Source of the DNA: a virus
Taxonomy: Duplodnaviria; Caudoviricetes
Length of the DNA stretch: 64,000 nucleotides
Reading direction: 5' to 3' (one strand)
IMG/VR virus record: IMGVR_UViG_3300044733_004704
Coordinates: 67,023-131,022 of that record
Shown here piece after piece: positions 7,401 to 64,000 of this stretch. The notes below the pieces were generated by a model. That model was not told the origin of the DNA. It saw only the letters and a list, made by a program, of their open reading frames with translations, and did no database searches. How positions within the stretch are numbered: the first letter of the stretch is position 1; each line of letters begins with the position of its first letter. The position numbers and the translations under genes are program-made.

Positions 7401-7975
7401 AGAGAGTACCATGCTTGTCCATCGCAAACCAGCCTGGTTGATGTGCTTGTTGACTCAAAAATTAAACCATCACAATCTCTAATTATTATGTTGTGAGCAG
7501 AAGACAGTGCTTTGATATCTATAACAATATTTCTAGCTTTTTTAGGGTCTGGTAATACACAATCAATATTTTTATCATTGTTATCTACCAAATAAATGCT
7601 TGTTACATTATCGATAGTAAAATGATCGTTCTTAACAATAACATTATTAAAACTACTATTAAAATTATTATTATTTACAAAAAGATAAAACTCATTTTCA
7701 TTACCAATAAAATTAACTGGTTTGTTATTATTTGATGAATTTGTAACCTCTATTCTTTTAACTACTAATAAACCATCACTATACTGTATTTCGCCAACTC
7801 CGGTTTCCCATTTGTATCCATCTTTAATATTACGAATTAAGTATGGAATAAAATATCCAATAGTATCTTGTTCTAATGCTTTATAGCCATTAATAGCATT
7901 ATGCTGAATAAAAGTGTTATTACTAACAGAACAAAGAAATCCTATGTTATTAAATATTTTAGTAATTTTATTCAT
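4406..7975 (-). CDS. tail protein with an inserted FGE-sulfatase (SUMF1/C-type-lectin fold) domain
   Basis: Motifs YDQNGNVAEW, GGSY, GFRV, YEVTNKQY, PVNYVNY, LPSFNQWHKAAY; lies directly after the tape measure gene. Confidence 0.75.
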   Translation of the reverse strand: MNKITKIFNNIGFLCSVSNNTFIQHNAINGYKALEQDTIGYFIPYLIRNIKDGYKWETGVGEIQYSDGLLVVKRIEVTNSSNNNKPVNFIGNENEFYLFVNNNNFNSSFNNVIVKNDHFTIDNVTSIYLVDNNDKNIDCVLPDPKKARNIVIDIKALSSAHNIIIRDCDGLIFESTSTSTRLVCDGQAWYSLNQNDQLNFASLSDDSFSSLSNPGGAAYSFQYNDGSNGLLGSELYWSSGNTNKLLLGSSSESLAHTVIPTSGSANTIFNQDLQPSDFIVYGSGQPYRNLFFSYDGRVGINIPSGSRPQTIFHVVNYSCSEILRLENRTTCQPAKLTVYHKPSSLSNGGVCSILNLAGRDVNNNQKDYATIYSIASDTTNGNGGLVLTVSSGSSQQPLVSGSLDSINLGYSNNKRININNNGNINISGDNIDIRSSTLSTIGTSNTYITLNNTNRSISLDYNSLLLGTGSITSNGTLSANNISSNTITLPNIATSSLLTISNNKTIVPINGITVNSGNNGLIFNNISGNKFLTTDSTNNLVGLYDLDDYFLTEKDITWNKYTPKIASVCLKQVILSEDTPIEEFSVGDQVEIITSNSSIYRNITSLVTNEAFITEIILDQNVSTNEINNITIASVTKGGYLTIQKFSSESSSDSTSNILSVRPKTETVFNTAQKDIDFTVYGADIRPALKVHASVGSITTVSGTYYNFATKDDNIKPIVINTVGSGLTNNFSTANYNYSLTNNLFSGILSSVGTNGKSSYYGTYDQNGNVAEWIESDITDGIVTLEYAAGGSYRTPVTGSVSPDADSIYLRGIQQFPIISGYDYVGFRVASISNLVDNANISNSSSLNLSFVNIINENNIADTKDLYLQFSNNTYQNIIIPNLGVVDKNYRIGRYEVTNKQYVQFLNSVATTVGDPVTTGLYNPNMTNAQNGGILRSTNGLVFEYSIKPNMEDKPVNYVNYINSLQFINWLHNDAPEEVSSNDANSIINDGAYTILLAGSTYYITANNNRKYFLPSFNQWHKAAYFEYQESIFVSGSPAITMGTFEPYVVATELLSENSTDPPKQVLANLTVSGWLVVDKIFVRDGTVRSSLKDIGFVPDLTADTIEQQAAGVIPPLSTDVGGINSDTFWNNNTSSSWGGGGGIYGETNPPPIVNADGTENEADCEDENLIATNNIPHWCRDDGRPGLF

Positions 7976-51818: not shown

Positions 51819-52641
51819 TGTGATTTTCCATAAATTCTGGTGTTAGTAATGGTACGTCCACAGTGTCGTCTTGATAAGTGTGATATTGTTGCATTCTTTC
51901 TTTGGCTCCGATTGCTGCCATTCCAAGAATTTCCATTTCTTTGCCTTCTTTTTCTCTTACTATTTCGTCTTCTAGCATTCGTATTAAACCAACCCAACTA
52001 CTTTTACCATCTTCTATTCTTTTTATTCTTTGTTCCCTAGTAGCTTTAAGATCTTTGCTAATTTTTTGTTGTTCGTTAAGAAGTTTGGTATATTCATTAG
52101 TGTAATTAGCGATACTGTTGCGGGCAAACGACAATTGAGTTTCGAGATTAGCCAATTTCGGTATATCTCTTTGATCCTCACTTTTTTCATACTCTTTGTC
52201 CACAAGCTTCTGTAATTTTTCAGTTTCGCTAATGTGTCTTTTTCGTTCTTTCATGCTGCGATTAATTAATATATCAATAGTGATAAATTGTTTAATTTGC
52301 AACTCTTCTGCTGGTAAAACATCTTCTCTAAACTGTTTTATTAGTCCAACCCAGGTATCTTCAAAGTATTGGAGTTCGCCGCTGTCCGCATCAAATTGAC
52401 GTGTAATTTCTACCCAAAAGGTTTTGCTATGTAATTTATCTTTTAGAGTTTCATAAGCCGCTTTGTCTTCTGGATCAATTAGTAAATTATTTTCATTAAT
52501 ATATCGCTTAATTGGTCCTTCGTGACGATTAAGATTAGAGGCTATAGCATCTATGCTTAATAAATTAACATTCTCACGAATATAAGCTTCTTCATCTAAA
52601 CTTAGTTGTCCTCGTTTTTTGGGAATTCTGCTGTTTTCCAA
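51811..52641 (-). CDS. hypothetical coiled-coil protein (terminase small subunit candidate)
   Basis: N-term HTH-like segment plus coiled coil; upstream of terL in the same operon. Confidence 0.45.
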   Translation of the reverse strand: MENSRIPKKRGQLSLDEEAYIRENVNLLSIDAIASNLNRHEGPIKRYINENNLLIDPEDKAAYETLKDKLHSKTFWVEITRQFDADSGELQYFEDTWVGLIKQFREDVLPAEELQIKQFITIDILINRSMKERKRHISETEKLQKLVDKEYEKSEDQRDIPKLANLETQLSFARNSIANYTNEYTKLLNEQQKISKDLKATREQRIKRIEDGKSSWVGLIRMLEDEIVREKEGKEMEILGMAAIGAKERMQQYHTYQDDTVDVPLLTPEFMENHNE

Positions 52642-53243
52642 TTGTGTTCCTCCATTATTTCCATAATATGTTTTTTAAGCTTGTTAAGATCGGACTTGTT
52701 AATTTTTTGATTGTGTTTTAGTTTTAGATAACTTTCTCTATATTCTGAGCGGATATTTTTGTCAAGAAAATTAACCATCTCGTTGTGCTCGTGAGAACCA
52801 TTAGGTGACGATGCTAAATTTAAGTCTTCAAAATAAGATGGTTTAGCAATATTCTTTTTAGCATCATTTCGTTTGGCCCACGAAGCGTATGGTTCGCATT
52901 CCTTTTTGTCAATAAATTTAGAGCACTGATTGTTAGAAACTTTATAAGTAGCATCGTATAGTGGACACGTTAAACAAGGCTTGTCGGGTCTTTGGTAGTT
53001 GTTTCTCTTGTAGTTAAATAATCGATTTCGCACATGAGTCCACAAAAAGTTTTCAAGGGGCCTTTTGTGATCATAATTTTTTAATCCTTCTAGTGCAAAT
53101 ATGGCCGCTTGTTGTTTCATATCCTCTATGCTATGATAGCCGAATTTAAATTTGTGAGCTAATCTTTTAGTAATTTTGTCTAAAACGGCTAAAAATTCGT
53201 CGTCACTCACCGCTTTGATGGTTTGATTTGTTTTTTTCTTCAT
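52602..53243 (-). CDS. sigma70-family (region 2) sigma-factor-like protein
   Basis: EDMKQQAAIFALEGLKNYD...LENFLWTHVRNRLFNYKR matches the region 2 pattern; Cys-rich insert. Confidence 0.7.
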   Translation of the reverse strand: MKKKTNQTIKAVSDDEFLAVLDKITKRLAHKFKFGYHSIEDMKQQAAIFALEGLKNYDHKRPLENFLWTHVRNRLFNYKRNNYQRPDKPCLTCPLYDATYKVSNNQCSKFIDKKECEPYASWAKRNDAKKNIAKPSYFEDLNLASSPNGSHEHNEMVNFLDKNIRSEYRESYLKLKHNQKINKSDLNKLKKHIMEIMEEHNWKTAEFPKNEDN

Positions 53244-53379
53244 TATTTAATAGAGTAGTTATGTCGTCTCCGTCTGGTAAATTAAGATCATTTTGAATTT
53301 GTTCAATTATTGATCCTGATGCTTTGACCGATAAGATCGAGGATGTAAGATTGGTAATATTAGAATCAAAATTAATCAT
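53203..53379 (-). CDS. small hypothetical protein
   Basis: ORF between the promoter at 53416-53443 and the sigma-like gene. Confidence 0.4.
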   Translation of the reverse strand: MINFDSNITNLTSSILSVKASGSIIEQIQNDLNLPDGDDITTLLNNEEKNKSNHQSGE

Positions 53380-53415
53380 ATTGAGCCCCTTGCTTAAAAG
53401 AACCAAAACTATAAT

Positions 53416-53443
53416 ATAATAGAGTTGATCATCACATTGTCAA
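53416..53443 (-). promoter_or_regulatory. sigma70-type promoter for the sigma/gmd/terminase operon
   Basis: TTGACA-N16-TATTAT. Confidence 0.6.
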
Positions 53444-53469
53444 TATTTACACTATATGGGGAGAATAAA

Positions 53470-53706
53470 ATGAGCTACAGAAAATGGGGTCAGGTTGAAT
53501 TGGATTTTATCCGTGATAATTTTAATGTTATTTCCGATGATGAGATTGCTGTACGATTGAGTCAAATAACAAATAGCAGTATTACTACTCCTATGGTGCG
53601 ACGACAAAGGCGCAAGCTTGGTATTCAAAAGCCACGAGGTCGTCAACCAAAGAACAAAAACGCCTCAATGCCCGCATCGTTTGCATCATCAAATGATAAT
53701 GGTTGA
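53470..53706 (+). CDS. small HTH-type DNA-binding protein
   Basis: GGGAGA RBS, WGQVELDFIRDN...DEIAVRL...VRRQRRKLGI. Confidence 0.65.
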   Translation: MSYRKWGQVELDFIRDNFNVISDDEIAVRLSQITNSSITTPMVRRQRRKLGIQKPRGRQPKNKNASMPASFASSNDNG

Positions 53707-53739
53707 ACATAAAGTTTTAAATTAGATCATTATAAAATT

Positions 53740-53763
53740 GGGGCATTAAGTTGCCCCTTTTTT
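53740..53763 (+). terminator. intrinsic terminator
   Basis: GGGGCA-TTAAGT-TGCCCC-TTTTTT. Confidence 0.75.
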
Positions 53764-53792
53764 ATTTAACCATATAGCATAAGGAAAATAAT

Positions 53793-54710
53793 ATGAAAGT
53801 TTTAGTTACTGGTGGCAATGGATTTTTAGGGTCTAGAATTATGAAAGTTCTAAAAGACCAAGGTTATGATGCTTCAACATTCAGATCACGAAATTTTGAT
53901 TTGTGTAATCCTAGACAAACTAAGGATGCTTTTGATAGATATCGGCCAGATGCTGTGATACACTGTGCTGCTGTGGTTGGTGGAATAGGTGCGAATAGGG
54001 TTAATCCAGGATCATTTTTTTATCAAAACATGATGATGGGATTAAATGTTATTGAAAATTGTAGAATTTTTGATGTACAAAAGGTTGTGCAGATAGGAAC
54101 GGTTTGTAGTTATCCTAAATATACTCCGGTTCCTTTTAGTGAAGATGGTTTGTGGGACGGCTATCCTGAAGAAACTAATGCTCCGTACGGAATAGCTAAA
54201 AAAGCTCTTTATGTTATGGTAGAAGCTTATAAAAATCAATATAATCTAAATGGTTGCGTATTGGTTCCTTGTAATTTATATGGGCCAAATGATAATTTTG
54301 ATCCTGGTAGTAGTCATGTTATTCCGGCTTTGATTAAAAAGTTTATTGATGCAAAACAAAATAACGATACCGAGGTAGAATGTTGGGGAAGCGGAAGTGC
54401 CACACGAGAATTTTTATATGTGGATGATGCTGCTGAAGCTATAGTAAAAAGCTTGAGTGTGGATACTGATACTAAGCCTATTAATTTGGGCGGTGGTATT
54501 GAAATAACAATAAAAGATTTAGCAGAAAAAATAAAAGCACTTGTTGGATATAACGGAAATATAGCTTGGAATAGTGATCAGCCAGATGGTCAACCACGAA
54601 GATTTTTGGACGTGTCACGCGCCAAAAAGATATTAGATTGGGAACCAAAGGTAAGTTTTGATGCTGGATTAAAAGAAACTATAGAGTGGTATGGGGCTAA
54701 TAAAAAATGA
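53793..54710 (+). CDS. fcl: GDP-L-fucose synthase
   Basis: VTGGNGFLG, AAVVGGIGAN, GTVCSYP, YGIAK, NLYGPNDNF, SHVIPAL, REFLYVDD, PDGQPRR. Confidence 0.95.
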   Translation: MKVLVTGGNGFLGSRIMKVLKDQGYDASTFRSRNFDLCNPRQTKDAFDRYRPDAVIHCAAVVGGIGANRVNPGSFFYQNMMMGLNVIENCRIFDVQKVVQIGTVCSYPKYTPVPFSEDGLWDGYPEETNAPYGIAKKALYVMVEAYKNQYNLNGCVLVPCNLYGPNDNFDPGSSHVIPALIKKFIDAKQNNDTEVECWGSGSATREFLYVDDAAEAIVKSLSVDTDTKPINLGGGIEITIKDLAEKIKALVGYNGNIAWNSDQPDGQPRRFLDVSRAKKILDWEPKVSFDAGLKETIEWYGANKK

Positions 54711-55126
54711 ATATTAAACTTTTAGAAGCTACGGACAATATACAAGATTATATAGATTGTGTTAAAGACCTAAATAATCATTGTACTAAGTTGAGTTCAA
54801 TAGAAGATATTAAATATGTATTAGAGAACAGACCATCTAATATACTAACTTTTGTTATGGTAAACGACGATAGTAGGATAGTATCAACAGCTACTGTTAT
54901 TATGGAACAAAAGTTAAGATATCAAAATTTATGTATGCATATAGAAGATGTTGGTACCCATCCTAGCTTTAGAAATGCTGGATACGCATCAACTATTATT
55001 AAATATTGTATAGATTTAGCAAAAAATAAAGACTGTTATAGAATAAAATTAAGTTGTGAAAATAATCTAGTAGATTTTTATAAAAAACTAGGATTTAAAA
55101 TTCACGGTAATTTTATGTTTATGTAA
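54707..55126 (+). CDS. GNAT acetyltransferase (glucosamine-6-phosphate N-acetyltransferase-like)
   Basis: EQKL...HIEDV...FRNAGY...CYRIKLSC...FYKKLGF. Confidence 0.8.
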   Translation: MNIKLLEATDNIQDYIDCVKDLNNHCTKLSSIEDIKYVLENRPSNILTFVMVNDDSRIVSTATVIMEQKLRYQNLCMHIEDVGTHPSFRNAGYASTIIKYCIDLAKNKDCYRIKLSCENNLVDFYKKLGFKIHGNFMFM

Positions 55127-55127
55127 T

Positions 55128-55727
55128 TTACTCTTTGTCTAAATCTTCATCGTTGTCTGGTACTGGTTGATTAGCTAATAGTTTGCGAGACTTCTTAATA
55201 GCTCTAGTTACCATTATTCTACCGATCATATCAACAAATGGTAATCCTCGTCGTTTAGCTTCGTCTCTTAGCCAACCAACAATAGTATCAATGTTTTGTT
55301 CGCACCAATCGTTACCTTGTTCGTTCATTGCTAGAGCATGTCTTTTGCATGAACAACTATCACTCATATGAATACCAAGACTTTTTATCATTGTGGACAA
55401 TACTGTGCCAGGAGAGTGTGGATTTTCTTCCATTGTTGGATTAAACAATTTTCTCAAAACCTTACTAGGATTGTCTCCTAATAGAAATTTGATTCTATCA
55501 TTAAGTTGTTTTTTTGTCCAATCTCCAAGTTCGTCGTACTCATGGTCAGAATATAGAATTAGCGGCAAATCAAATTTTTCTATATCAACATGAATTGTTC
55601 TGTCTTGTGGATTATCTACATATGTAATATATAAAGTGTCTGTTTGTATGGGTTCAGGATGAGTTATTTTGCCGCTATGATCAGAGTATGGTGGTGGCTG
55701 AACACTTATTTTGCTATCTAGTTTCAT
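55128..55727 (-). CDS. hypothetical protein, paralog of 49515..50087
   Basis: Shared motifs; own TTGACA-N16-TATTAT promoter at 55769-55796. Confidence 0.7.
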   Translation of the reverse strand: MKLDSKISVQPPPYSDHSGKITHPEPIQTDTLYITYVDNPQDRTIHVDIEKFDLPLILYSDHEYDELGDWTKKQLNDRIKFLLGDNPSKVLRKLFNPTMEENPHSPGTVLSTMIKSLGIHMSDSCSCKRHALAMNEQGNDWCEQNIDTIVGWLRDEAKRRGLPFVDMIGRIMVTRAIKKSRKLLANQPVPDNDEDLDKE

Positions 55728-55894
55728 GATTTAGTATTCCTATGATATAAGAATTGATACTTTAGTATATAATAATTGCTTAGAATCTAGTGTCAATATA
55801 AAATTTATTATTAGTAAATAGGATGATCATTATAGTTTAGGTAAGACATTTATGTTGGTTTTGGCTTACTATGTTTAGACCACCGCCGGTTTTC

Positions 55895-55911
55895 TGCAAA
55901 ATCTGTGCCAA
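55895..55911 (-). promoter_or_regulatory. sigma54 -24/-12 promoter motif
   Basis: Minus strand TTGGCACAGATTTTGCA (GG-N10-GC). Confidence 0.65.
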
Positions 55912-55948
55912 ACCAAAAGAAAATGAAAAAACCCCCCTACTGAGCGGG

Positions 55949-56100
55949 TGACGCAAAATGCTGTGCAAAATGCTACAGTGTGACGCAAAATGCTACAGTG
56001 ATCCTTACCCCCGTCTCAAATTGAGAATGCTGTAACCCTATATTTTTCAAGGGGTTATGGAAAATCGTATTTTTTTTCTCGAATGGCACGACATTCGCAT
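55949..56100 (+). promoter_or_regulatory. sigma54 promoter module, copy 1
   Basis: 3x GCAAAATGC, TCTCAAATTGAGA, 11-7-11 palindrome at 56031-56059, TGGCACGACATTCGCAT at 56084. Confidence 0.6.
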
Positions 56101-56134
56101 ATATGTATGGCAACAAAGAAAGAGAGAAAGAAAA

Positions 56135-56365
56135 ATGGAAAACCTTATCGTCCTCAACACCGTTTCTGAACTTCGTGATCTGATCAATACCACGACGATG
56201 ACCACGTTTGTTGGTCGCGTTGCTTTTGCAATGGATCTTCTGGAAAGTGTTCGCCAGAATGACAACATGATCGAAATCAATCATGAGTTGGGATTCTGCG
56301 ATGATGGTGGATTCATCCAGATTGATGAGATGGGTTATGTGGTCGATGATTATGCGATCCAGTGA
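56135..56365 (+). CDS. small acidic hypothetical protein
   Basis: Purine-rich leader then MENLIVLNTV. Confidence 0.65.
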   Translation: MENLIVLNTVSELRDLINTTTMTTFVGRVAFAMDLLESVRQNDNMIEINHELGFCDDGGFIQIDEMGYVVDDYAIQ

Positions 56366-56366
56366 T

Positions 56367-56410
56367 TCCCTATAAGGGGGGTTGTGGCGGAAGAAAAGTT
56401 TGGTAGAATC
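56367..56410 (+). promoter_or_regulatory. repeated hairpin plus extended -10 promoter (also 57326-57370, 58421-58464)
   Basis: CCC..GGGGG-TTGWKG-N16 ending AAAGTTTGG-TAGRMT in three copies. Confidence 0.6.
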
Positions 56411-56432
56411 CTAGAAAGAAAGAGAGAAAAAG

Positions 56433-56618
56433 ATGGTTTACAATGTTGGTGATAGGTTGAGTGTGGTCTATAGCACTGGCGAATCGTTCACTGGTGAACT
56501 GGTTAGCGTTCGTGAGATTCCGAACAAGGGAACGTTGATTCTGGTCAACGATGATACGGTGGGCTATCGGTCCATGTATGCCGACAAGGTTGTGAGCGTG
56601 ATCGTGGAGAATGTTTGA
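56433..56618 (+). CDS. small SH3/Sm-like beta-barrel protein
   Basis: VGDRLSVVYSTGESFTGELVSV...YRSMYADKV. Confidence 0.6.
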   Translation: MVYNVGDRLSVVYSTGESFTGELVSVREIPNKGTLILVNDDTVGYRSMYADKVVSVIVENV

Positions 56619-56825
56619 ATGGATACTAACTACTTTCAATCATCGTTCGAGAGTATGGAAACGAGTACCATACGATTGTGGCTCCACGAAGCCCAAGTAC
56701 GACTGCCCCATGAGAGCGGTAGCGTTCGTGAAATACTGAAAGAAGGTATACGTGCGTCTGCTCGTGAACTGTTGTTCAGGTATCGAGAGGATATGAAAAG
56801 AATCTTTTCAAAAAACTCGACGTAA
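56619..56825 (+). CDS. hypothetical protein
   Basis: GGAG RBS; stop codon lies in arm 1 of 82-bp element A. Confidence 0.55.
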   Translation: MDTNYFQSSFESMETSTIRLWLHEAQVRLPHESGSVREILKEGIRASARELLFRYREDMKRIFSKNST

Positions 56826-56902
56826 ACCCTTGATATGTAAGGACTTACGGCGAAATTGGGCCGCCATTTTTGACGTAACTCCTTATGGTTCAAGCACTTA
56901 CG
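56821..56902. repeat. 82-bp double-palindrome element A
   Basis: CGTAAACCCTT GATATGT AAGGACTTACG N24 CGTAACTCCTT ATGGTTC AAGCACTTACG. Confidence 0.92.
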
Positions 56903-56918
56903 GCGACCCCAAAGGTAG

Positions 56919-57070
56919 TGTAGCAAAATGCTGTAGCAAAATGCGTCACCTGTAGCAAAATGCCTCACCTTGGCACACCCCCGTCTCAAAATGAGAATGA
57001 TGTAAAGTATTGTGGCGTAATGACTTAGGAAGAAAAAAAGATTTTTTGGTGAATGGCATGGGAAGTGCAT
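56919..57070 (+). promoter_or_regulatory. sigma54 promoter module, copy 2
   Basis: 3x GCAAAATGC, TCTCAAAATGAGA, palindrome at 57001-57029, TGGCATGGGAAGTGCAT at 57054; offset 970 bp from copy 1. Confidence 0.6.
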
Positions 57071-57103
57071 TATATAGAGACAAGAAAGAAAGAGAGAAAG
57101 AGA

Positions 57104-57322
57104 ATGAGAATGAGTCGTTATAGTTCAGCCCTTCGGTCCTATCGTGATGAGCGGTCTAACCGCCATCGTCATGTTCGTACTAACCTGTGGATCGTTTACC
57201 AGAATGGTAAGCGTATCGGCAAGGTTGGTGGAATCAGTGAGGGTGAAGCCCTTGCAAAGATTCCGCAGTCCTATAAGGACAACGGTCCTATCGAACTGGA
57301 AAGGGTCGTGATCGAAGAGTGA
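57104..57322 (+). CDS. hypothetical protein, paralog of 62669..62848
   Basis: WIVYQNGKRIGKV...SE..A...ER. Confidence 0.6.
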   Translation: MRMSRYSSALRSYRDERSNRHRHVRTNLWIVYQNGKRIGKVGGISEGEALAKIPQSYKDNGPIELERVVIEE

Positions 57323-57394
57323 TCCTTCCCCACAAGGGGGGTTGTGGTGGCGGAAAAGTTTGGTAGACTCACAGAATCACTAGGAGAAAAAGAG

Positions 57395-57712
57395 ATGGAA
57401 AAGTTTCGAATCGTTGAAGAATACAAGCGTACAGTTCGTGGTATCTTCTATGGTATGGCGATCCCTTGCGAAAAGCGTACCGCTGATGGTGGTATGATTA
57501 CCAGTGAGAAGGTATTGAAGTTCAATCGTTCAGCATTGCGAAAGATTGGCAAGCGTAGGATCGAAAAGGTTGATCCTCGCATAGTAGGTGGCGAGGATCG
57601 TATGCGTTTCCCCGTTGGCAAGCCCGGTTCCCCCGAAAGACTGGTTGCTCTTGCAGAGCAGTATGCTAGTTTAGCAGATGACGAGATGAGTCCCTTTATT
57701 GGAGATGAGTGA
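57395..57712 (+). CDS. hypothetical protein
   Basis: AGGAG RBS, MEKFRIVEEY..., GKPGSPER motif. Confidence 0.65.
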   Translation: MEKFRIVEEYKRTVRGIFYGMAIPCEKRTADGGMITSEKVLKFNRSALRKIGKRRIEKVDPRIVGGEDRMRFPVGKPGSPERLVALAEQYASLADDEMSPFIGDE

Positions 57713-57716
57713 GTAT

Positions 57717-57791
57717 ATGTTCACTGCGCTTTTGTTCACCCTGTCATACGTTGGCTTTCTGTATTGTATGCTAACTGCGGAAAAATCTTGA
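57717..57791 (+). CDS. 24-aa membrane peptide
   Basis: MFTALLFTLSYVGFLYCMLTAEKS, manual translation. Confidence 0.4.
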   Translation: MFTALLFTLSYVGFLYCMLTAEKS

Positions 57792-57822
57792 TCTAAGCCC
57801 TTACCTTCTAGATGAGTGAAAC

Positions 57823-58011
57823 ATGACGATTCAGATGGCGGTGGAAAAGACGTTGCTTCGTTTGATTGCGGTTCATGGTCATTCGGCCATGTATGTATGC
57901 GACTTGGGCGGCGATGTTAGTTTGTACACTGTGGGTGGCGTTCACTATGCTATTCGTGATGATGGTACGGCCCACGCTATTCACCCGGCCGAGGTATTTC
58001 CCACCCTGTAG
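57823..58011 (+). CDS. hypothetical protein
   Basis: 62-aa ORF ending 14 bp before element B. Confidence 0.55.
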   Translation: MTIQMAVEKTLLRLIAVHGHSAMYVCDLGGDVSLYTVGGVHYAIRDDGTAHAIHPAEVFPTL

Positions 58012-58025
58012 AGGGACGGACTCGA

Positions 58026-58107
58026 CGTAAAGTCTTGAGCCGTAAGGACTTATGGCGAAATCGGGCCCGTAATTTTGACGTAAGTGCTTATGAGACAATG
58101 ACTTACG
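58026..58107. repeat. 82-bp double-palindrome element B
   Basis: CGTAAAGTCTT GAGCCGT AAGGACTTATG N24 CGTAAGTGCTT ATGAGAC AATGACTTACG. Confidence 0.92.
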
Positions 58108-58129
58108 ACAAACTCTATACCATGATTTT

Positions 58130-58163
58130 TGGCATGAAAATTGCTCTAGCATATGGTGTGCCA
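58130..58163. promoter_or_regulatory. head-to-head pair of sigma54 motifs
   Basis: TGGCATGAAAATTGCT (+) and TGGCACACCATATGCT (-) separated by 2 bp. Confidence 0.55.
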
Positions 58164-58286
58164 ATATGGAAGAAAATTATGAAAAGTTTTGTCAAAATCT
58201 CTTGACACAAAAATTTCCAGATTTTTCTTGCACCCTAAAGAATCCATGGTATAATGTCGATATAAGAGAAAGAAAGAGAGAAAGAA

Positions 58287-58430
58287 ATGAGCAAGATTGA
58301 AGTTTACTATTCCGATTGCTGTGGTGTTGAGATTGTTGGTGATATCGCTGGTCTCGAATTGTGTCCCCGATGCTGGGAACACTGTGACTGCGTTATCGAG
58401 GAAATCGACGATCCATCATGCCCCGCCTAA
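58287..58430 (+). CDS. 47-aa Cys-rich Zn-ribbon-like protein
   Basis: SDCCG...CPRCWEHC; promoter TTGCAC-N16-TATAAT at 58228-58255. Confidence 0.6.
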   Translation: MSKIEVYYSDCCGVEIVGDIAGLELCPRCWEHCDCVIEEIDDPSCPA

Positions 58431-58486
58431 TGGGGGTTGATGCGGCGACAAAGTTTGGTAGGATTATAGAAAAGAAAAGGAAAGAG

Positions 58487-58585
58487 ATGTACAAGGATTT
58501 TCTTAGCAATCTGATTGTTTGTTTTCTGCTGTTTTGTTGGGCATATTTGTTCGTTCTGGTTCCCGCGTACTTTTTCTTTGGATAA
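58487..58585 (+). CDS. 32-aa membrane peptide
   Basis: MYKDFLSNLIVCFLLFCWAYLFVLVPAYFFFG, AAGGA RBS. Confidence 0.5.
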   Translation: MYKDFLSNLIVCFLLFCWAYLFVLVPAYFFFG

Positions 58586-58591
58586 AATAAT

Positions 58592-58780
58592 ATGAATAGC
58601 CTCGATAAAATTCTGTCTGCTATGCGAACTGGCAAGTATGGTAGCGTGGTGGATACTAAGGGTAAGATTCATGTTGGCATTATCAATTCACTATTGCGTG
58701 AAGATGGCAGTAATAAAAATTGGATTGTAACGGTGAGCAACCGTACAGTTACTGAACAAGTGTTCATTCATGCTAGTTAG
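58592..58780 (+). CDS. small beta-rich hypothetical protein
   Basis: 62-aa ORF ending 11 bp before element C. Confidence 0.6.
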   Translation: MNSLDKILSAMRTGKYGSVVDTKGKIHVGIINSLLREDGSNKNWIVTVSNRTVTEQVFIHAS

Positions 58781-58791
58781 GATTGTCTCGA

Positions 58792-58873
58792 CGTAAAGTC
58801 TTGAACCGTAAGGACTTATGGCGAGGCCGGGCAGCCCCCGGCGACGTAACTCCATATGGGACAAGCACTTACG
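58792..58873. repeat. 82-bp double-palindrome element C
   Basis: CGTAAAGTCTT GAACCGT AAGGACTTATG N24 CGTAACTCCAT ATGGGAC AAGCACTTACG. Confidence 0.92.
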
Positions 58874-58987
58874 ACGAGTAGCAGAGCAAACGCTGTGCCG
58901 CAAAAAATAATCTTTTTTCTAAGATTTTCTGCTTGACAGTGCCGATGATTAGTGTAGAATCCACGCATCACCCCAAGGGACTTTACA

Positions 58988-59164
58988 ATGTACGATTTCG
59001 AGGACATCAACGCGATTCTTGCTGATATGGCCGACGAGGGTATTCTGGAACCGATGGTCGAGCCGATTGATGAGAACGACTGCCACCCCCTCGACTGGGC
59101 GGAAGTGGTCGGTTGTGCGGACGATATTTTTGAAGAGATTTATCTTGACACGATGGGCTACTAG
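58988..59164 (+). CDS. 58-aa highly acidic protein
   Basis: MYDFEDINAILADMADEG...; no Lys/Arg; promoter TTGACA-N16-TAGAAT at 58933-58960, AAGGGA RBS. Confidence 0.65.
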   Translation: MYDFEDINAILADMADEGILEPMVEPIDENDCHPLDWAEVVGCADDIFEEIYLDTMGY

Positions 59165-59192
59165 TGGTATCTTAGTTGATAAGGAGAAAGTC

Positions 59193-59336
59193 ATGTATCA
59201 GACCATGTGGAAGATGTATCAGACCGGACAGATCACCGAGAGGAAGTGGCTGGTGTTCTGCGATTGGTACATGTGGAACTGTATCATGGTTCGGCCTGAG
59301 ATTGTTGAGATGATGGTTCGGATGAAGTATAACTGA
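59193..59336 (+). CDS. 47-aa hypothetical protein
   Basis: AAGGAG RBS; promoter TTGACA-N17-TATCTT at 59145-59173. Confidence 0.6.
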   Translation: MYQTMWKMYQTGQITERKWLVFCDWYMWNCIMVRPEIVEMMVRMKYN

Positions 59337-59348
59337 AAGGTAAAAGTC

Positions 59349-59621
59349 ATGAGTCACCCCGATCCACTGTATGATCCCGATAACTCTGAGGATGATGATA
59401 TGAATTATGATGATCACGACGATTTCTATCAAGAGGTCGAAGATTACAACGATTATTATATCGAAGAAAATAGCGTGGACGATGATGACGACTACGATGA
59501 TAGCATGGACGGCGACCATGATAGTGCCATGACTTCAGCCGGTTGGGGAACCGATGAGGATTATGGATCGTATCACGATGATATTGACGCTTATCACGAT
59601 TACTACGGGGAGGATTTCTGA
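59349..59621 (+). CDS. extremely acidic Asp/Tyr-rich protein
   Basis: About 40% Asp+Glu and no Lys/Arg by manual count. Confidence 0.7.
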   Translation: MSHPDPLYDPDNSEDDDMNYDDHDDFYQEVEDYNDYYIEENSVDDDDDYDDSMDGDHDSAMTSAGWGTDEDYGSYHDDIDAYHDYYGEDF

Positions 59622-59623
59622 AC

Positions 59624-59830
59624 ATGATCAATTACATGTGCGATAACATCACGGTTGACAACGATTCGGAAGATGGTATTTTTCTTGGAAACAAGATGGT
59701 TGTAATTTCTGTTCCAGCATGTACTAGTGCTGATCCTTTGGACAGGTATGACCACCTTGTGGCAATATCCGGAGCGTTGGAAAATGCTCTGGACTGCGGT
59801 GTACGCTCGTTCAGTTACAACAAACTTTGA
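59624..59830 (+). CDS. hypothetical protein
   Basis: GGAGG RBS; stop codon abuts element D. Confidence 0.55.
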   Translation: MINYMCDNITVDNDSEDGIFLGNKMVVISVPACTSADPLDRYDHLVAISGALENALDCGVRSFSYNKL

Positions 59831-59912
59831 CGCAAACCCTTGCTGCGTAAGGACTTACGACGCGGCGGGCGGGCCGATTTTGACGTAAGTCTTTATGCAC
59901 CAAGGACTTAGG
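59831..59912. repeat. 82-bp double-palindrome element D
   Basis: CGCAAACCCTT GCTGCGT AAGGACTTACG N24 CGTAAGTCTTT ATGCACC AAGGACTTAGG. Confidence 0.92.
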
Positions 59913-60003
59913 GCTAAAAAATAATTTTCGGATTTTTTGCTTGACAACCTAAAGTTCTTTTGATAGAATGCCGATAATAGAAGTAGAAGCAGAGGACAGA
60001 GCG

Positions 60004-60204
60004 ATGTTCATCATAATGAAAAGTTCACGGGCATATGAGGGTGCTACTCCCGCTAATGCTTACAGACAGCCCGAAACGTGTGCTTGTGCTGGTGTTGAGC
60101 CGGGCAAGGTGTACACTAGTAGGGAGTCTGCCAAGGTCGATGCCGACAAGTTGAGCGTATGCAATTCTGTCGGTTTTGTTGTTGTTGCTTGTTGTATGGA
60201 TTAA
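60004..60204 (+). CDS. hypothetical protein
   Basis: GAGGA RBS; promoter TTGACA-N17-TAGAAT at 59941-59969. Confidence 0.6.
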   Translation: MFIIMKSSRAYEGATPANAYRQPETCACAGVEPGKVYTSRESAKVDADKLSVCNSVGFVVVACCMD

Positions 60205-60304
60205 AGAGGAATCGGATGAAGTATAACTAAAGGAAAGATTTAACGATGAGAATCATTATAGATAATGGCCTTACTTATGAATGTTCTGAGTATCGCCCCA
60301 TCGC

Positions 60305-60386
60305 TCTAAGTTCTTGCTACCAAAGGACTTAGGGCGAGATGGGCGGGCCAATTTTGACGTAACTCCTTATGGATCAAGCACTTAGA
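60305..60386. repeat. 82-bp double-palindrome element E
   Basis: TCTAAGTTCTT GCTACCA AAGGACTTAGG N24 CGTAACTCCTT ATGGATC AAGCACTTAGA. Confidence 0.92.
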
Positions 60387-60438
60387 AAACATTACAGTTT
60401 TTCTTGACAAGTGTCGATAAGTATGGTATTCTAACATC

Positions 60439-60609
60439 ATGAGCAAGCGAAAAAAGAGTATCGTTGTGCAACTGAATGTGCGTCCGTTGTGGGCTATCGG
60501 CACGGGTCATCACGACCACAAGAGCGGAAGCGGACAGCACGACAATCGACCAAAGCGACTTCGCACTCGCGGAGCCAAGAATCGACAGGCCGTGAGGGAT
60601 GGTTGGTAG
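60439..60609 (+). CDS. 56-aa basic protein, probably leaderless
   Basis: MSKRKKS...GSGQHDNRPKRLRTRG; ATG 6 nt after the -10 of TTGACA-N17-TATTCT (60404-60432). Confidence 0.6.
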   Translation: MSKRKKSIVVQLNVRPLWAIGTGHHDHKSGSGQHDNRPKRLRTRGAKNRQAVRDGW

Positions 60610-60716
60610 TCCTACCTAATCCTACGGATTTGGATTGTGTGGATGTAGTCAGCCAAAAAATAGATCTCTTGACAAAATAGATTTCTCGACTAAAATATCG
60701 TTCAAAGGAGAAAACG

Positions 60717-61178
60717 ATGCTTACTCTTCGACATTTTCGTAAGATCGAGAAGGAAATCAAGGGACTGAAAAAGTGCCAAAGTATTTATAGCCGGAAAAAG
60801 AATGCTCTGTGCTATAAACTTTCTAAGATGGGTACTCAGCACAGGGCCAACGCTATTGAGCGTATGATTCGTGATTATTTAATCACTATGGGTAATAGGG
60901 TTGATTATTTTGGTGGTAATCATTCTTATGATATGGTTGTAAATGGAAAAAAGGTAGAAGTAAAGTCCTCCCTTGCACAACCCATATCTGGTAAAAAGTA
61001 TCGTTATAGGTTTCAAAATATCAAAAGTGGTTATTTTCACGAAATTATTTTAGTATTTGTTACCCCAAAGGGTATCAAGATCAAACGCATGAATAAAAAT
61101 CGTTTGGAAAATCAAATCAGATATGCTAAGTGTTATTCAAATGGTAAGACTTTAGAGTTAAAAGAACTAGCGGCCTAA
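60717..61178 (+). CDS. PD-(D/E)xK nuclease-like protein
   Basis: E...YDMVVNGKKVEVKSS motif; own promoter at 60669-60696; AAGGAG RBS. Confidence 0.65.
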   Translation: MLTLRHFRKIEKEIKGLKKCQSIYSRKKNALCYKLSKMGTQHRANAIERMIRDYLITMGNRVDYFGGNHSYDMVVNGKKVEVKSSLAQPISGKKYRYRFQNIKSGYFHEIILVFVTPKGIKIKRMNKNRLENQIRYAKCYSNGKTLELKELAA

Positions 61179-61239
61179 AGTTTTGGCTCTTGACAAACGA
61201 TAAAAACAATGTAGAATTGTGCAGAACAAGGAGGTTCTC

Positions 61240-61311
61240 ATGGATGGGGCAATTGTGCTTATTGTGGTGGTTATGATTATTGGTCTAATTGTGGAGATAT
61301 TGTGGAAATGA
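61240..61311 (+). CDS. 23-aa membrane peptide
   Basis: AAGGAGG RBS; MDGAIVLIVVVMIIGLIVEILWK; promoter at 61190-61217. Confidence 0.55.
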   Translation: MDGAIVLIVVVMIIGLIVEILWK

Positions 61312-61388
61312 TTAGTAGTTTTCATGCTTTTGTAATTATCTCTTGTGCTTTTATCATGTATTTTGCCATTATGACCGATAGTTTATAA
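61308..61388 (+). CDS. 26-aa membrane peptide
   Basis: ATGA overlap; MISSFHAFVIISCAFIMYFAIMTDSL; stop in arm 1 of element F. Confidence 0.45.
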   Translation: MISSFHAFVIISCAFIMYFAIMTDSL

Positions 61389-61465
61389 ATCCTTGTCCTG
61401 TAAGGACTTAGATCAAAACGGCGCGGCCCGGCTCGACGTAAGTGCTTGATTCTCAACAACTTGCA
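61384..61465. repeat. 82-bp double-palindrome element F
   Basis: TATAAATCCTT GTCCTGT AAGGACTTAGA N24 CGTAAGTGCTT GATTCTC AACAACTTGCA. Confidence 0.9.
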
Positions 61466-61543
61466 TCAAAAAAATTTTTCTAAAGATTACCTCTTGCGTT
61501 GGCCGATAAATATGGTATGCTTGAGACTCACCAACGGAGAAAG

Positions 61544-61855
61544 ATGATGACTCATTCTGAAGCGGTTAGGATGGTTCGTGGCAAGCGGAATGCGGAGCGT
61601 CGCAAGGTTGGCAACAATACCTACGCGGAGATTCTGAGCGATGGTAGCGTTGGAATCATGCTGCATAGTACCTATGTGGTCAAGATTCATGAGGATGGTA
61701 CTTATACCCTGAATAGTGGGGGTTGGCAAACCTTGACCACTAAGGATCGTATCAATCAGTATAGCCCGCGTTATGTTTTCCAGAAGAATTATGAATGGTT
61801 CGTGAAAATCAACGACAAGCCGTATCCGTTTATCGACGGGATGGTGGTGAGTTGA
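61544..61855 (+). CDS. hypothetical phage protein
   Basis: GGAGA RBS; TLNSGGWQTLTTKDRINQY; promoter at 61494-61521. Confidence 0.65.
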   Translation: MMTHSEAVRMVRGKRNAERRKVGNNTYAEILSDGSVGIMLHSTYVVKIHEDGTYTLNSGGWQTLTTKDRINQYSPRYVFQKNYEWFVKINDKPYPFIDGMVVS

Positions 61856-62049
61856 AAAATATCAACCAGATTTTGAAAGGATTGGGAAAACTTGGTTTTA
61901 GGGTAGAGTTTTGTGATGGTAGTTTGGTCAAGTTATATCCGGCAGATTCTAGCCAGCCTTTTTATTCATTACATGTGGGAGAACGTGCGATTCACCCGCT
62001 AAAGAGGTTTGCCAAGAAAAACTGGAATATCGAACTTGACAAGGTGTGA
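61852..62049 (+). CDS. HicA-like fold protein
   Basis: TTG start overlapping the previous stop; INQILKGLGKLGF....DGSLVKLYP...LH pattern. Confidence 0.45.
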   Translation: MKNINQILKGLGKLGFRVEFCDGSLVKLYPADSSQPFYSLHVGERAIHPLKRFAKKNWNIELDKV

Positions 62050-62096
62050 GATGATGGTATACTTGTGACATAAGGTAACTAACTGAAAGGAAAAAG

Positions 62097-62504
62097 ATGA
62101 ACGATTTTATTGCTGCTGCTCTGGTTTCTACGATTTGTCTGGTTGGTCTGGTCTGCTTTGTGTTGTTTCATATCTATCGTGGATTGAATGATTCGCTGAT
62201 TACTGCTAGGATCGGTAGTGTTTATAACTTTGAGTATGAACAGCCGGTTACTGGTGATCCTGAGCGTTTTATGGCTAAGGTACTTAGTGTGCATCGTCTT
62301 AGCAATGATAGTATCGCTAGGCTGAATGCTACTAGCCGTTATCGAAGACACGATGGACAGTTTGTGCGTACTCATCATCTGGTGACCGCTCAAACGCCGG
62401 ATGGTAAGATTCGCAATTTCTACGCCGAACGTACTCGCAATGTGCGTCGCCCCCTTTTGGGTGGTACGCTCTTCAAGAGTGGTTTGGCCGCTATGATGTT
62501 CTGA
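62097..62504 (+). CDS. membrane-anchored WYL/SH3-like protein
   Basis: N-term TM helix; YNFEYEQP..G..ER...LVTA...GKIRNFYAERTRNV; promoter at 62036-62063. Confidence 0.55.
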   Translation: MNDFIAAALVSTICLVGLVCFVLFHIYRGLNDSLITARIGSVYNFEYEQPVTGDPERFMAKVLSVHRLSNDSIARLNATSRYRRHDGQFVRTHHLVTAQTPDGKIRNFYAERTRNVRRPLLGGTLFKSGLAAMMF

Positions 62505-62519
62505 GTATCGCCCCATCGC

Positions 62520-62601
62520 TCTAAGTTCTTGCTAGTAAAGGACTTAGGGCGAGATGGGCGGGCCGGCCGCGACGTAAGTGCTTATTCATCAACCACTTAG
62601 G
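62520..62601. repeat. 82-bp double-palindrome element G
   Basis: TCTAAGTTCTT GCTAGTA AAGGACTTAGG N24 CGTAAGTGCTT ATTCATC AACCACTTAGG. Confidence 0.92.
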
Positions 62602-62668
62602 ATTTTCTAAAGAAAACCTCTTGACAAGCCGATACTATCTAGTAGAATGACTCGAACAGGAGAAAATT

Positions 62669-62848
62669 ATGAGTTATACTTGGGCCGTTTGGCAAAATAA
62701 TCGTCTGGTGGGTTATGTCGAGTCGTCTAGTGAATGGAATGCTATTAGATTAGCCCATAGCAATTATGGGTCTTGTTTGTATGTGGAACGATGTTTGGTT
62801 GGTGTTGGTCCAAAAAATCTTAAAGAAAATGTCTTGACAGGCCGATAA
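62669..62848 (+). CDS. 59-aa hypothetical protein, paralog of 57104..57322
   Basis: AGGAG RBS; WAVWQNNRLVGYVESSSEWNA...YVER; promoter at 62621-62648. Confidence 0.6.
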   Translation: MSYTWAVWQNNRLVGYVESSSEWNAIRLAHSNYGSCLYVERCLVGVGPKNLKENVLTGR

Positions 62849-62861
62849 TAGAGTGTAGAAT
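62834..62861 (+). promoter_or_regulatory. sigma70-type promoter driving the ncRNA array
   Basis: TTGACA-N16-TAGAAT with no RBS/ORF downstream. Confidence 0.75.
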
Positions 62862-62893
62862 ACGAGAGTTCGAAGCGATCATTGACAATACAA

Positions 62894-63040
62894 TAGGGAC
62901 TGCTAGGTTGCGTGAGCAACTTCCCCAAAGCCCAACTGCCTGCTACGGTGGGAAGAGGCGGGCAGTGAAGTAGATGGTCAAGTGGCGGGTCGAGGTGGTA
63001 GCACACTGTTGACAACCCAAAATGAATCCATCCGTCCCTA
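62894..63040 (+). ncRNA. structured tRNA-like RNA, unit 1
   Basis: Closing stem TAGGGAC/GTCCCTA; GTTGC-GTGA-GCAAC; ACTGCCTGC/GCGGGCAGT; GATGG/CCATC. Confidence 0.6.
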
Positions 63041-63042
63041 AA

Positions 63043-63145
63043 TAATGCGTAGGTTAAGCGTTGAGCAGCCAGCGGTGGCGGGAGTACTACCAACACCGTC
63101 CGCTAGACCACCAGAGGGAAGTGCGGGTAAAATCCCGTCGCATTA
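63043..63145 (+). ncRNA. structured tRNA-like RNA, unit 2
   Basis: Acceptor-like TAATGCG/CGCATTA, D-like GGTT/AGCC, AGCGG/CCGCT arm, T-like GCGGG-TAAAAT-CCCGT. Confidence 0.65.
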
Positions 63146-63154
63146 AAAACTTTC

Positions 63155-63288
63155 GTGGGTCCATGCCTTGGACTAGATTAGGATAAGCCATTACGATAAA
63201 CCTACGGCTGTTACGCAGCGTGGGGTTGCCAGCGGGCTTATACGTTGGATAGTAATGCTAATCTATGGGGGATCGCGTCCTCACCATG
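63155..63288 (+). ncRNA. structured four-way-junction RNA, unit 3
   Basis: GTGGG/CCCAT, TCC/GGA, TAGATTAG/CTAATCTA enclosing ATAAGCC/GGCTTAT, TGGGGG/TCCTCA. Confidence 0.6.
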
Positions 63289-63301
63289 AGCAATACAATA
63301 T

Positions 63302-63445
63302 GGGGTTATAAGGTAGTTCCCAAAAGGTTCTGATCAAACTTTTTGATAAATATACCGAATAGATACGTGAACCTATTAGCATATGAACCATGGTTTTAGT
63401 GTGCTAATAATGTAACGGCGGGTTTGAATCCCGATAACCTCTCCA
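63302..63445 (+). ncRNA. enlarged tRNA-like RNA with 3' CCA, unit 4
   Basis: GGGGTTA/TAACCTC-T-CCA, GGTA/TACC D-like stem, AATAG/CTATT arm, AGCATAT/GTGTGCT variable arm, CGGG-TTTGAAT-CCCG T arm. Confidence 0.7.
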
Positions 63446-63451
63446 TTACAA

Positions 63452-63505
63452 TAGATAGGCGGAGTAACTGAGGCGCTCCATCGTATGTGTGTCCCGGCCT
63501 GTCTA
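63452..63505 (+). ncRNA. structured RNA, unit 5
   Basis: TAGATAGGC/GCCTGTCTA closing stem, GGAGT/GCTCC inner stem. Confidence 0.5.
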
Positions 63506-63512
63506 CAATACA

Positions 63513-63594
63513 ACCAGTAACCGTTCCCAAGAGCCAGACGATATGAGTCATGAACATATCTAGGGAGGATTTCCGTGGACGGTTTCTTACTGGT
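63513..63594 (+). ncRNA. structured RNA, unit 6
   Basis: ACCAGTAA/TTACTGGT, CCGTTC/GGACGG, GATATG/CATATC. Confidence 0.5.
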
Positions 63595-63607
63595 CCGTAA
63601 CAGGGCT

Positions 63608-63652
63608 ACCAGTAAGGCTAGAATCGGGGCGTAAAAGATTCGCTGGTTTTTT
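63608..63652 (+). terminator. terminator-like hairpin closing the ncRNA array
   Basis: ACCAGT..GAATC/GATTC-GCTGGT followed by a T run. Confidence 0.45.
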
Positions 63653-63702
63653 CCTATTGACTTGACGATAACTAAGAGTATAATGGTGGAAAAGGAGATA
63701 AA

Positions 63703-63939
63703 ATGACCGTTAACGAACTGATTGAGCAGTTGAAGAGTTATCCATCAGATATGAGGGTTCTTACTCTTGGTTATGAGGGTGGGTATGATGATATCAACCT
63801 CAAGACTAAGGATATTATTTTCAATGTGAATAGTAAGGATACTTGGTATCTTGGTAGCCATGACGAACCGGGCATGGTGAATAATATGGATAATGATGAA
63901 ACCGGAACAAAGTGTGTTGTTATTGTGAGAACAGCATGA
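63703..63939 (+). CDS. hypothetical phage protein
   Basis: AAGGAG RBS; MTVNELIEQLKSYPSDMRV..GYEGG; promoter TTGACT-N16-TATAAT at 63657-63684. Confidence 0.7.
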   Translation: MTVNELIEQLKSYPSDMRVLTLGYEGGYDDINLKTKDIIFNVNSKDTWYLGSHDEPGMVNNMDNDETGTKCVVIVRTA

Positions 63940-64000
63940 AAGTTTACGTTGTATTTGATATTCCCGGTATTGATCCAGACGATGAAGATGCTGACGAGAT
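63936..64000 (+). CDS. hypothetical protein, partial
   Basis: ATGA overlap; MKVYVVFDIPGIDPDDEDADE open to the window end. Confidence 0.45.
   Translation, partial: MKVYVVFDIPGIDPDDEDADE

Follow-up and report, generated by a model that had tools for sequence, protein, structure and literature searches.

A duplicated, mobile candidate sigma-54 enhancer-promoter cassette upstream of the early genes of a lake-water phage

The window analysed here, 64 kb long, is the final part of one 131,022-bp IMG/VR phage contig (IMGVR_UViG_3300044733_004704), and its first early genes are preceded by two modules 970 bp apart (55953-56099 and 56923-57069). Each module presents, in the same order, three copies of GCAAAATGC, a TCTCA-N3-TGAGA palindrome, an A/T tract, the motif TGGCAYG-N4-KYGCA, a purine-rich leader and an ATG, giving a control unit of around 170 bases. 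Judging from comparison with related phages, it is probable that each module is a mobile sigma-54 enhancer-promoter cassette dependent on an NtrC/LuxO-type activator of the host. The modules mark a point of divergence, since the leftward genes start at about 55727 and the rightward genes at about 56135. Coordinates are window positions unless marked as genome positions; L-numbers are retrieved loci, and G000 and G001 are genome records.

GCAAAATGC occurs seven times in the window where 0.95±0.94 copies are expected, a count reached in 0 of 100 shuffles, and six of the nine copies in the 131-kb genome lie within the two triplets. The spacings in module 1 are 12 and 20 bp, together 32 bp or about three helical turns. 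As expected of the enhancer of a bacterial enhancer-binding protein (bEBP), there are at least two dyads roughly 80-150 bp upstream on one face of the helix, site 1 being separated from site 3 by those 32 bp. The palindrome TCTCAAAWTGAGA has just two occurrences genome-wide, at 56014 and 56984. In both predicted promoters the GG and GC doublets are exactly 10 nt apart (56085-56086 with 56097-56098, and 57055-57056 with 57067-57068). A scan of the window for TGGCACGNNNNTTGCW allowing up to two mismatches gave 10 matches against 4.70±2.17 expected (1 of 100 shuffles reached 10), and six of the ten, including all three with a single mismatch, fall within 55895-58900. Compared with the extended consensus YTGGCACG-N4-TTGCW, as quoted in PMC3352281, the promoter of module 1 (P1) has one mismatch and that of module 2 (P2) two; close relatives carry TGGCACG at the place of the module 2 -24 element. 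The purine-rich leader AAGAAAGAGAGAAAG, with up to one mismatch, occurs four times, twice immediately after the modules.

A sequence-only reading of this region had already listed this duplicated set of elements, and every one of them was found again at its position, the palindromes at 56031 and 57001 being weaker than described. Instead of the 11-7-11 palindromes claimed, the former is a 6-bp stem (TAACCC/GGGTTA) and the latter a degenerate half of the hairpin of an 88-bp repeat; neither was reported by an inverted-repeat search with a minimum length of 8. The same reading had placed an integration host factor (IHF) site between enhancer and promoter. Module 1 does contain a weak IHF-like sequence, TTTCAAGGGGTTA, with one mismatch to what we take to be the IHF consensus; module 2 and most diverged cassettes have none, although all have an A/T tract.

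Table 1. Positions of the two modules and of associated features in the window (start sites are predictions).
Feature	Position	Strand	Remarks
Sigma-70-type promoter TTGACA-16-TATTAT of the 199-aa gene (55128-55727)	55769..55796	-	11/12
Leftward sigma-54-like motif TGGCACAGATTTTGCA	55895..55910	-	1 mismatch to TGGCACGNNNNTTGCW; predicted start ~55884
Module 1 putative enhancer, three GCAAAATGC (55953, 55965, 55985)	55953..55993	+	centres ~-153, -141, -121 from predicted start
Module 1 proximal palindrome TCTCAAATTGAGA	56014..56026	.	centre ~-90
Module 1 spacer: weak 6-bp hairpin, IHF-like TTTCAAGGGGTTA (56045-56057), T8 tract (56070-56077)	56031..56077	.	
Module 1 putative -24/-12 element (P1) TGGCACGACATTCGCA	56084..56099	+	predicted start G 56110
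Leader and first gene of module 1	56110..56365	+	ATG 56135, 76 aa
88-bp two-hairpin/terminator repeat copy	56815..56902	+	directly upstream of module 2
Module 2 putative enhancer, three GCAAAATGC (56923, 56936, 56955)	56923..56963	+	centres ~-153, -140, -121
Module 2 proximal palindrome TCTCAAAATGAGA	56984..56996	.	
Module 2 A7/T6 tract	57033..57048	.	directly upstream of -24 element
Module 2 putative -24/-12 element (P2) TGGCATGGGAAGTGCA	57054..57069	+	predicted start ~57080
Leader and first gene of module 2	57080..57322	+	ATG 57104, 72 aa, basic
Overlapping sigma-54-like motifs without enhancer: TGGCATGAAAATTGCT (+, 58130-58145), TGGCACACCATATGCT (-, 58148-58163)	58130..58163	.	
Leftward-class motif CGGCACAGCGTTTGCT without enhancer	58885..58900	-	beside 88-bp repeat

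The evidence that carries the argument comes from related phages. From IMG/VR an exact 21-mer of the module retrieved 12 stretches, and looser promoter-core and paired-site patterns retrieved 17 and 118. Among these we surveyed 42 unique clusters of three to five GCAAAA[TC]GC sites with complete flanks and scored their surroundings for TGGCAC-N5-TTGC; as the survey is anchored on the upstream sites alone, with no selection on the promoter, it avoids circularity. Downstream on the same strand 28 of the 42 clusters scored at least 9/10, and five more scored 8/10 at the same position. At a score of at least 8 the controls gave 0/42 (downstream, opposite strand) and 1/42 (upstream, same strand), and the nine clusters that lack the motif are repeats of an unrelated kind, spaced differently (e.g. 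7-7 or 17-17 tandem). In the 28 high-scoring clusters the motif follows the last site at 64-68 bp (11 clusters), 74 bp (one) or 87-90 bp (16), the two main classes being about two helical turns apart. The commonest site spacings among the cassettes are (12,20), (13,19) and (12,19).

Conservation was then scored in 26 non-redundant cassettes out of 33 unique ones, all selected to contain GG and GC, with the T of TGGCAC as position 0. T0, C3, A4 and A15 were each present in 26/26, C5 in 22/26, G6 in 25/26 and T12 in 24/26, counts which, all cassettes being homologous, measure constraint and not independent events or origins, and to that extent weigh less in favour of a sigma-54 promoter. The N4 spacer took at least 11 forms and a purine stood at the predicted +1, so that both blocks are kept while the spacer drifts. 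Conserved blocks around a free spacer are the footprint expected of a -24/-12 promoter. A tract of A5-6/T5-6 at -17 to -7 from TGGCAC was conserved in the same 26 cassettes. Furthermore, some diverged cassettes come nearer to the textbook form than those of the window: a perfect TGGCACG-N4-TTGCA is found in L116, L202, L170/L171, L147, L146 and L122, and L116 and L202 have perfect 13-mers TTGCAAAATGCAA as well. At the position of the proximal palindrome diverged cassettes carry other 5-N3-5 palindromes. An enhancer-type sigma-54 promoter is favoured by the fixed distance and orientation between the upstream sites and the motif, for which the internal controls were clean, and by the diverged relatives that match both the sigma-54 consensus and the LuxO-type 13-mer exactly. 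This part of the sequence-only reading is thus supported by the comparison; a phage activator, as described below, is not.

A different promoter class could be responsible for the modules, namely one read by a sigma-70-family factor, either of the host or the 213-aa sigma-like protein of the phage, with an AT run as its -10 element, the repeats as operators and the sigma-54 likeness incidental. ATATATA or TTATATA indeed follows the GC in 26/26 non-redundant cassettes, the phage does encode a protein with a Sigma70_r2 match, and the AT run of module 2 resembles the -10 of the middle and late promoters, which read TTGACA-N16/17-TATTAT(A). However, there is no conserved -35 at 16-18 bp, where positions vary among cassettes, and neither the 10-nt spacing from GG to GC nor a TGGCACG block 11 nt from the AT run fits the geometry of a sigma-70-family promoter. 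A phage sigma would be expected to have targets upstream of the late genes, and no GGCAC...GCAT motif is found there. The sequence-only reading had itself named sigma-70 boxes as the finding that would explain these genes otherwise; a sigma-70 scan yielded no candidate promoter for P1 and, for P2, one 9/12 match within the module itself (56970-56998), with a -35 that relatives do not share; nothing usable was thus found for either. We therefore give a sigma-70-family promoter little credence. The 213-aa protein (52602-53243, minus strand) matches Sigma70_r2 weakly and its gene lies behind a TTGACA-N17-TATTAT promoter; the capsid-region promoters have the same TATTAT(A) -10.

Sigma-54-like motifs are also found outside the two rightward promoters. 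A near-perfect divergent motif, proposed in the sequence-only reading, was confirmed as TGGCACAGATTTTGCA, and the distance back from it to the three putative enhancer sites of module 1 is 73-105 bp. Its class, TGGCACAG-N3-TTGC, recurs in nine of the 42 cassettes (none of 42 in a matched opposite-strand control), 3-45 bp from the enhancer and in one case 125 bp, and is thus not confined to this phage. The motif at 55895-55910 itself is kept in a relative of 98% identity (L013), not in the more distant relatives that have the 199-aa gene. That gene has its own sigma-70-type promoter (Table 1), the only one that the sigma-70 scan gave at 11/12 and one conserved in distant relatives without the cassette. 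It thus has no need of the leftward motif, which could be a second promoter served by the same enhancer or a place where the holoenzyme docks. The overlapping motifs at 58130-58163 may be the leftover of a third cassette; the gene downstream of them (58287-58430) stands behind a full cassette in L001/L011. In L115, TGGCACAGCGTTTGC occupies the same relative position as CGGCACAGCGTTTGCT.

Given that the motifs at 58130, 58148 and 58885 have no enhancer and adjoin 88-bp terminator repeats, that leftward motifs face terminators or a long untranslated stretch in the 9 of 42 cassettes, and that a phage genome holds two or three cassettes, one may ask whether the motifs bind sigma-54 holoenzyme and/or activator for a purpose other than transcription, as decoys that titrate the regulator or as closed-complex roadblocks between units. 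Such a main role is improbable. Every rightward cassette is followed, always at the same distance, by a leader with its ATG, and cassettes replace sigma-70 promoters on orthologous genes, which points to promoter function: gene 58287-58430 has a sigma-70-type promoter in our phage and the full cassette in L001/L011, and gene 56433-56618, likewise under a sigma-70 promoter here, has an ortholog behind a cassette in L010. The two kinds of promoter thus appear interchangeable, which would not be so for origins or packaging sites. Downstream of 53 cassettes there are 39 distinct first open reading frames (ORFs), belonging to 17 unrelated small-ORF families. The idea that the repeats are replication-origin iterons or a packaging or injection signal, raised as an alternative in the sequence-only reading, can appeal to three direct repeats, a palindrome and an A/T-rich tract as the usual parts of an origin and to their position at the switch between leftward and rightward genes, but is scarcely credible for an oriented element that occurs two or three times per genome instead of at a single locus, each copy facing a small ORF at a fixed leader distance, moves between 17 families of unrelated genes, conserves the sigma-54 blocks around a free spacer and has no initiator or terminase gene beside it.

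The upstream sites resemble those of LuxO. PMC3352281 gives the LuxO consensus as TTGCA-N3-TGCAA, and the 13-mer TTGCAAAATGCAA of the diverged cassettes is identical to the LuxO site found by chromatin immunoprecipitation sequencing at Vibrio cholerae qrr1 (Table 1 of PMC10328515). The proximal palindrome TCTCAAATTGAGA resembles a SypG site, TTCTCANNNTGMDWN, quoted in PMC10162802, and is a possible second regulator site; according to the same source, LuxO-type and SypG-type sites overlap at qrr1 of V. fischeri. The site class is wider than Vibrio. A metagenome scan for paired 11-mers gave mostly the noise of 7-nt tandem repeats, with 14 of 128 matches having a sigma-54-like motif within 170 bp. 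Ten of the metagenome loci (L278 and nine similar ones) represent one bacterial mobile element with this class of site, in which two TTGCATTTTGCAA lie 93 bp from TGGCACG-CAGG-ATGC, and L341, a bacterial contig of 31% G+C, has a sigma-54 motif before an extracytoplasmic-function (ECF) sigma gene, preceded at 106 bp by three 13-mers. Because the class is not specific to Vibrio, the upstream sites are best termed putative NtrC/LuxO-type activator sites and not LuxO sites. In L278 the sigma-54 motif faces three HTH_17 genes and two integrases, and positions 8244-13072 encode a hybrid kinase, a regulator with the architecture REC-Sigma54_activat-HTH_8, integrases and excisionase-like genes.

Sigma-54 promoters stay silent until a signal-activated ATPase opens them, which makes them the tightest of bacterial switches. 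On the model we favour, host RNA polymerase with sigma-54 would wait at TGGCAYG-N4-KYGCA as a closed complex. The three GCAAAATGC some 120-155 bp upstream would be occupied by an enhancer-binding ATPase of the NtrC/LuxO type, also from the host, which would reach the polymerase by a loop over the A/T-rich spacer. The activator would then open the promoter, with transcription predicted to start near 56110 and 57080, so that the first small gene of each unit would be made only while the host regulator is active. The remaining early region would be driven by strong sigma-70 promoters.

The sequence-only reading had left room for a phage bEBP as the source of the signal; a search for rpoN and bEBP genes in the contig and its relatives found no such gene. 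Profile searches of the phage with Sigma54_DBD and Sigma54_CBD at E up to 1 gave no match, the sigma-54 interaction domain PF00158 was found in 0/1 phage and in 0/5 related records, among them a 177,880-bp record rated 100% complete, no HTH_8 (Fis-type HTH) was detected in the phage, and six-frame translations of G000 and G001 contained no GAFTGA-type motif. As no phage gene for sigma-54 or an activator was found, both would have to be supplied by the host. No phage RNA polymerase gene was detected in the 131-kb contig; a search for a T7-type RNA polymerase gave no match, and neither did its control, so this search is no evidence of absence.

Several points weigh against a sigma-54 enhancer-promoter. 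The -12 blocks of the window deviate from consensus (TCGCA, GTGCA), as does the TGGCAT of P2; of the LuxO 13-mer, the window sites preserve the 9-bp core GCA-AAA-TGC and agree at 9-11 of 13 positions. The conserved AT-alternating run after the GC is no defining feature of sigma-54 promoters and could be -10-like. As no phage activator was found, the activation step would depend wholly on a protein of the host, and searches with TerL (large terminase), GDP-mannose dehydratase, DnaE, a Gp96-like protein and the site pattern gave no host in which rpoN and an activator could be looked for. A scan of 401 Burkholderiales genomes for sites plus promoter gave 2 matches, the same as the 2 in the reversed control. 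Contigs of an RNA library (X24; 16% of sampled words, 90-99% alike) cover the enhancer too and so are uninformative on starts. The family of one early gene takes its name from cyanophages, and the nearest cultured TerL is that of a Microcystis phage, at just 22.8% identity. To our knowledge Cyanobacteria are without sigma-54, and a cyanobacterial host, or one from another lineage lacking sigma-54, would break the sigma-54 reading.

What can be said of the host comes from the promoters. Genome-wide there are 31 copies of TTGACA-N16-18-TAnnnT against 8.6 expected (maximum 14 in 20 resamples) and GGAG ribosome sites are frequent. A Bacteroidota host was considered and rejected, the Bacteroidota promoter type not being enriched (7 against 9.7 expected). 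These three observations suggest a bacterial host that uses sigma-70 promoters of the canonical kind. Searches with TerL, DnaE and the Gp96-like protein found no close cultured phage, and the GDP-mannose dehydratase is 43-52% identical to those in genomes of many phyla. A tRNA search of the phage genome found none; the relative G001 has one tRNA-Leu. G001 is labelled a provirus, yet it consists of collinear phage DNA that breaks off within the early region and has no host flank.

If host sigma-54 and a host activator do read the modules, the virus could follow the state of the host by simple means, needing no sensor itself. The host would have to possess both rpoN and an activator for dyads of the GCAAAATGC type, a constraint useful in predicting it, and at about 170 bp the cassette would be a compact part that lends itself to testing. 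A broader scenario, which we offer tentatively and hold to be possible rather than probable, is that abundant lake phages of one lineage carry mobile, sometimes bidirectional sigma-54 enhancer cassettes with no regulator of their own, let the first early genes listen to a LuxO/NtrC-type two-component pathway of the host, and swap the cassettes with sigma-70 promoters as hosts or conditions change. The pathway could then report cell density or nutrient status, and phage expression would be set by the signalling state of the host.

The phage is a siphophage with a large terminase, portal, tail fibres and a 4746-aa tape-measure protein, and it has replication and nucleotide genes for a DnaE-type polymerase, DnaB, primase, RecA and ribonucleotide reductase. 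The region is present almost base for base in 23 lake-water DNA runs; blastn against 50,697 phage records gave no close DNA match. To the right of the modules G+C steps up from about 33% to about 44%, and the level of 41-45% over 56000-64000 is reached nowhere else on the 131-kb contig. An Rfam search of 52000-64000 at E up to 0.1 found no RNA family. Beyond the modules the rightward early region is a series of small ORFs, and the 76-aa and 72-aa proteins that head the two units matched no known family in Pfam, PHROGs or a protein atlas.

Early transcription units are divided by the 88-bp repeat, which has seven copies of 60-100% identity between 56815 and 62601 on the plus strand, each made up of two related 11-7-11 hairpins around a G+C-rich hairpin with a T run. 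Most copies are followed by an A/T-rich tract and a near-consensus sigma-70 promoter, TTGACA-N17-TAGAAT. A 68-nt repeat (56366-56433, 57326-57393 and 58421-58488), comprising a short hairpin, an extended -10 promoter-like GTTTGGTAGAAT and a purine-rich leader, appears to be the own promoter of the second gene of each unit. Further right, 62868-63660 (plus strand, 793 nt) has no ORF above 53 aa on either strand except one 110-aa antisense frame with a consensus sigma-70 promoter (62834-62861) on one side and a terminator-like end on the other. Rfam gave no match for this stretch and 20 shuffles put its folding z-score at -1.76; it may be a large early non-coding RNA. In two runs (X1 and X8) contig depth over 55936-60000 is 2-5 times that of neighbouring late genes, with many alternative joints, an indication that early cassettes are shared and reshuffled among several co-existing phage strains.

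Elsewhere in the genome, the 4746-aa ORF (7982-22222, minus strand) matches the tape-measure families PhageMin_Tail and phrog_28 at its N-terminus only, and the tail would be unusually long if the entire protein sets its length. Proteins combining Mtd_N with FGE-sulfatase (C-type-lectin-like) domains are encoded at 4406-7975, 35128-37902 and 37935-39560 (minus strand) and at genome positions 2507-3922 and 5048-6625 (plus strand). They are of the type targeted by diversity-generating retroelements. The DNA polymerase III alpha gene (genome 27152-32640; L029 8152-13640) is in three pieces interrupted by LAGLIDADG-domain ORFs, and a PD-(D/E)XK/LAGLIDADG protein is encoded directly upstream of it.

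Among the known systems closest in layout are the qrr promoters of Vibrio, which have 13-bp TTGCA-N3-TGCAA dyads upstream of a -24/-12 element, and the V. cholerae qrr1 13-mer (PMC10328515) recurs in the diverged phage cassettes; they share a second palindrome resembling the SypG site as well (PMC10162802). They differ in that the phage cassettes precede small protein genes whereas qrr encodes a regulatory RNA, and in that the window keeps only the 9-bp core GCA-AAA-TGC. A Vibrio host is unlikely, given the 33% G+C of the phage and its lake-water origin.

In the enteric bacteria, NtrC-activated promoters of the glnAp2 type have their activator sites over 100 bp ahead of the -24/-12 element, spaced by about three helical turns, and work by DNA looping. 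Spacing and upstream placement are alike in the phage modules; the half-site sequence and the phage context are different, and nothing in the modules points to nitrogen status. For phages, Ceyssens et al. 2008 are reportedly the source of a sigma-54-like promoter in Pseudomonas phage YuA. That promoter, assigned to host sigma-54 in PMC10914365 just as we propose for the modules, is the one sigma-54-like phage promoter in print that we found. The passage on it describes a single promoter in a cultured phage and mentions no enhancer; the unit proposed here combines promoter and enhancer, is present in duplicate, and is both conserved and exchanged across many uncultured phages. Full-text searches, in a collection lacking most subscription papers, gave no description of complete enhancer-promoter cassettes in the early regions of phages. 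A preprint proposes a phage AAA+ protein that acts on sigma-54 polymerase.

The L278-type element likewise pairs TTGCATTTTGCAA sites with a nearby sigma-54 motif on mobile DNA. It differs in having its own REC-Sigma54_activat-HTH_8 regulator and hybrid kinase, none of which was found in the phage; we presume these two to resemble the rteA/rteB pair of Bacteroides conjugative transposons. Finally, cyanophages have genes with Pho boxes under the PhoR/PhoB system of the host. There too phage genes are wired to a two-component regulator of the host and their expression follows its state, but by sigma-70-type activation of auxiliary metabolic genes and not, as proposed for the modules, by a sigma-54 enhancer before early genes.

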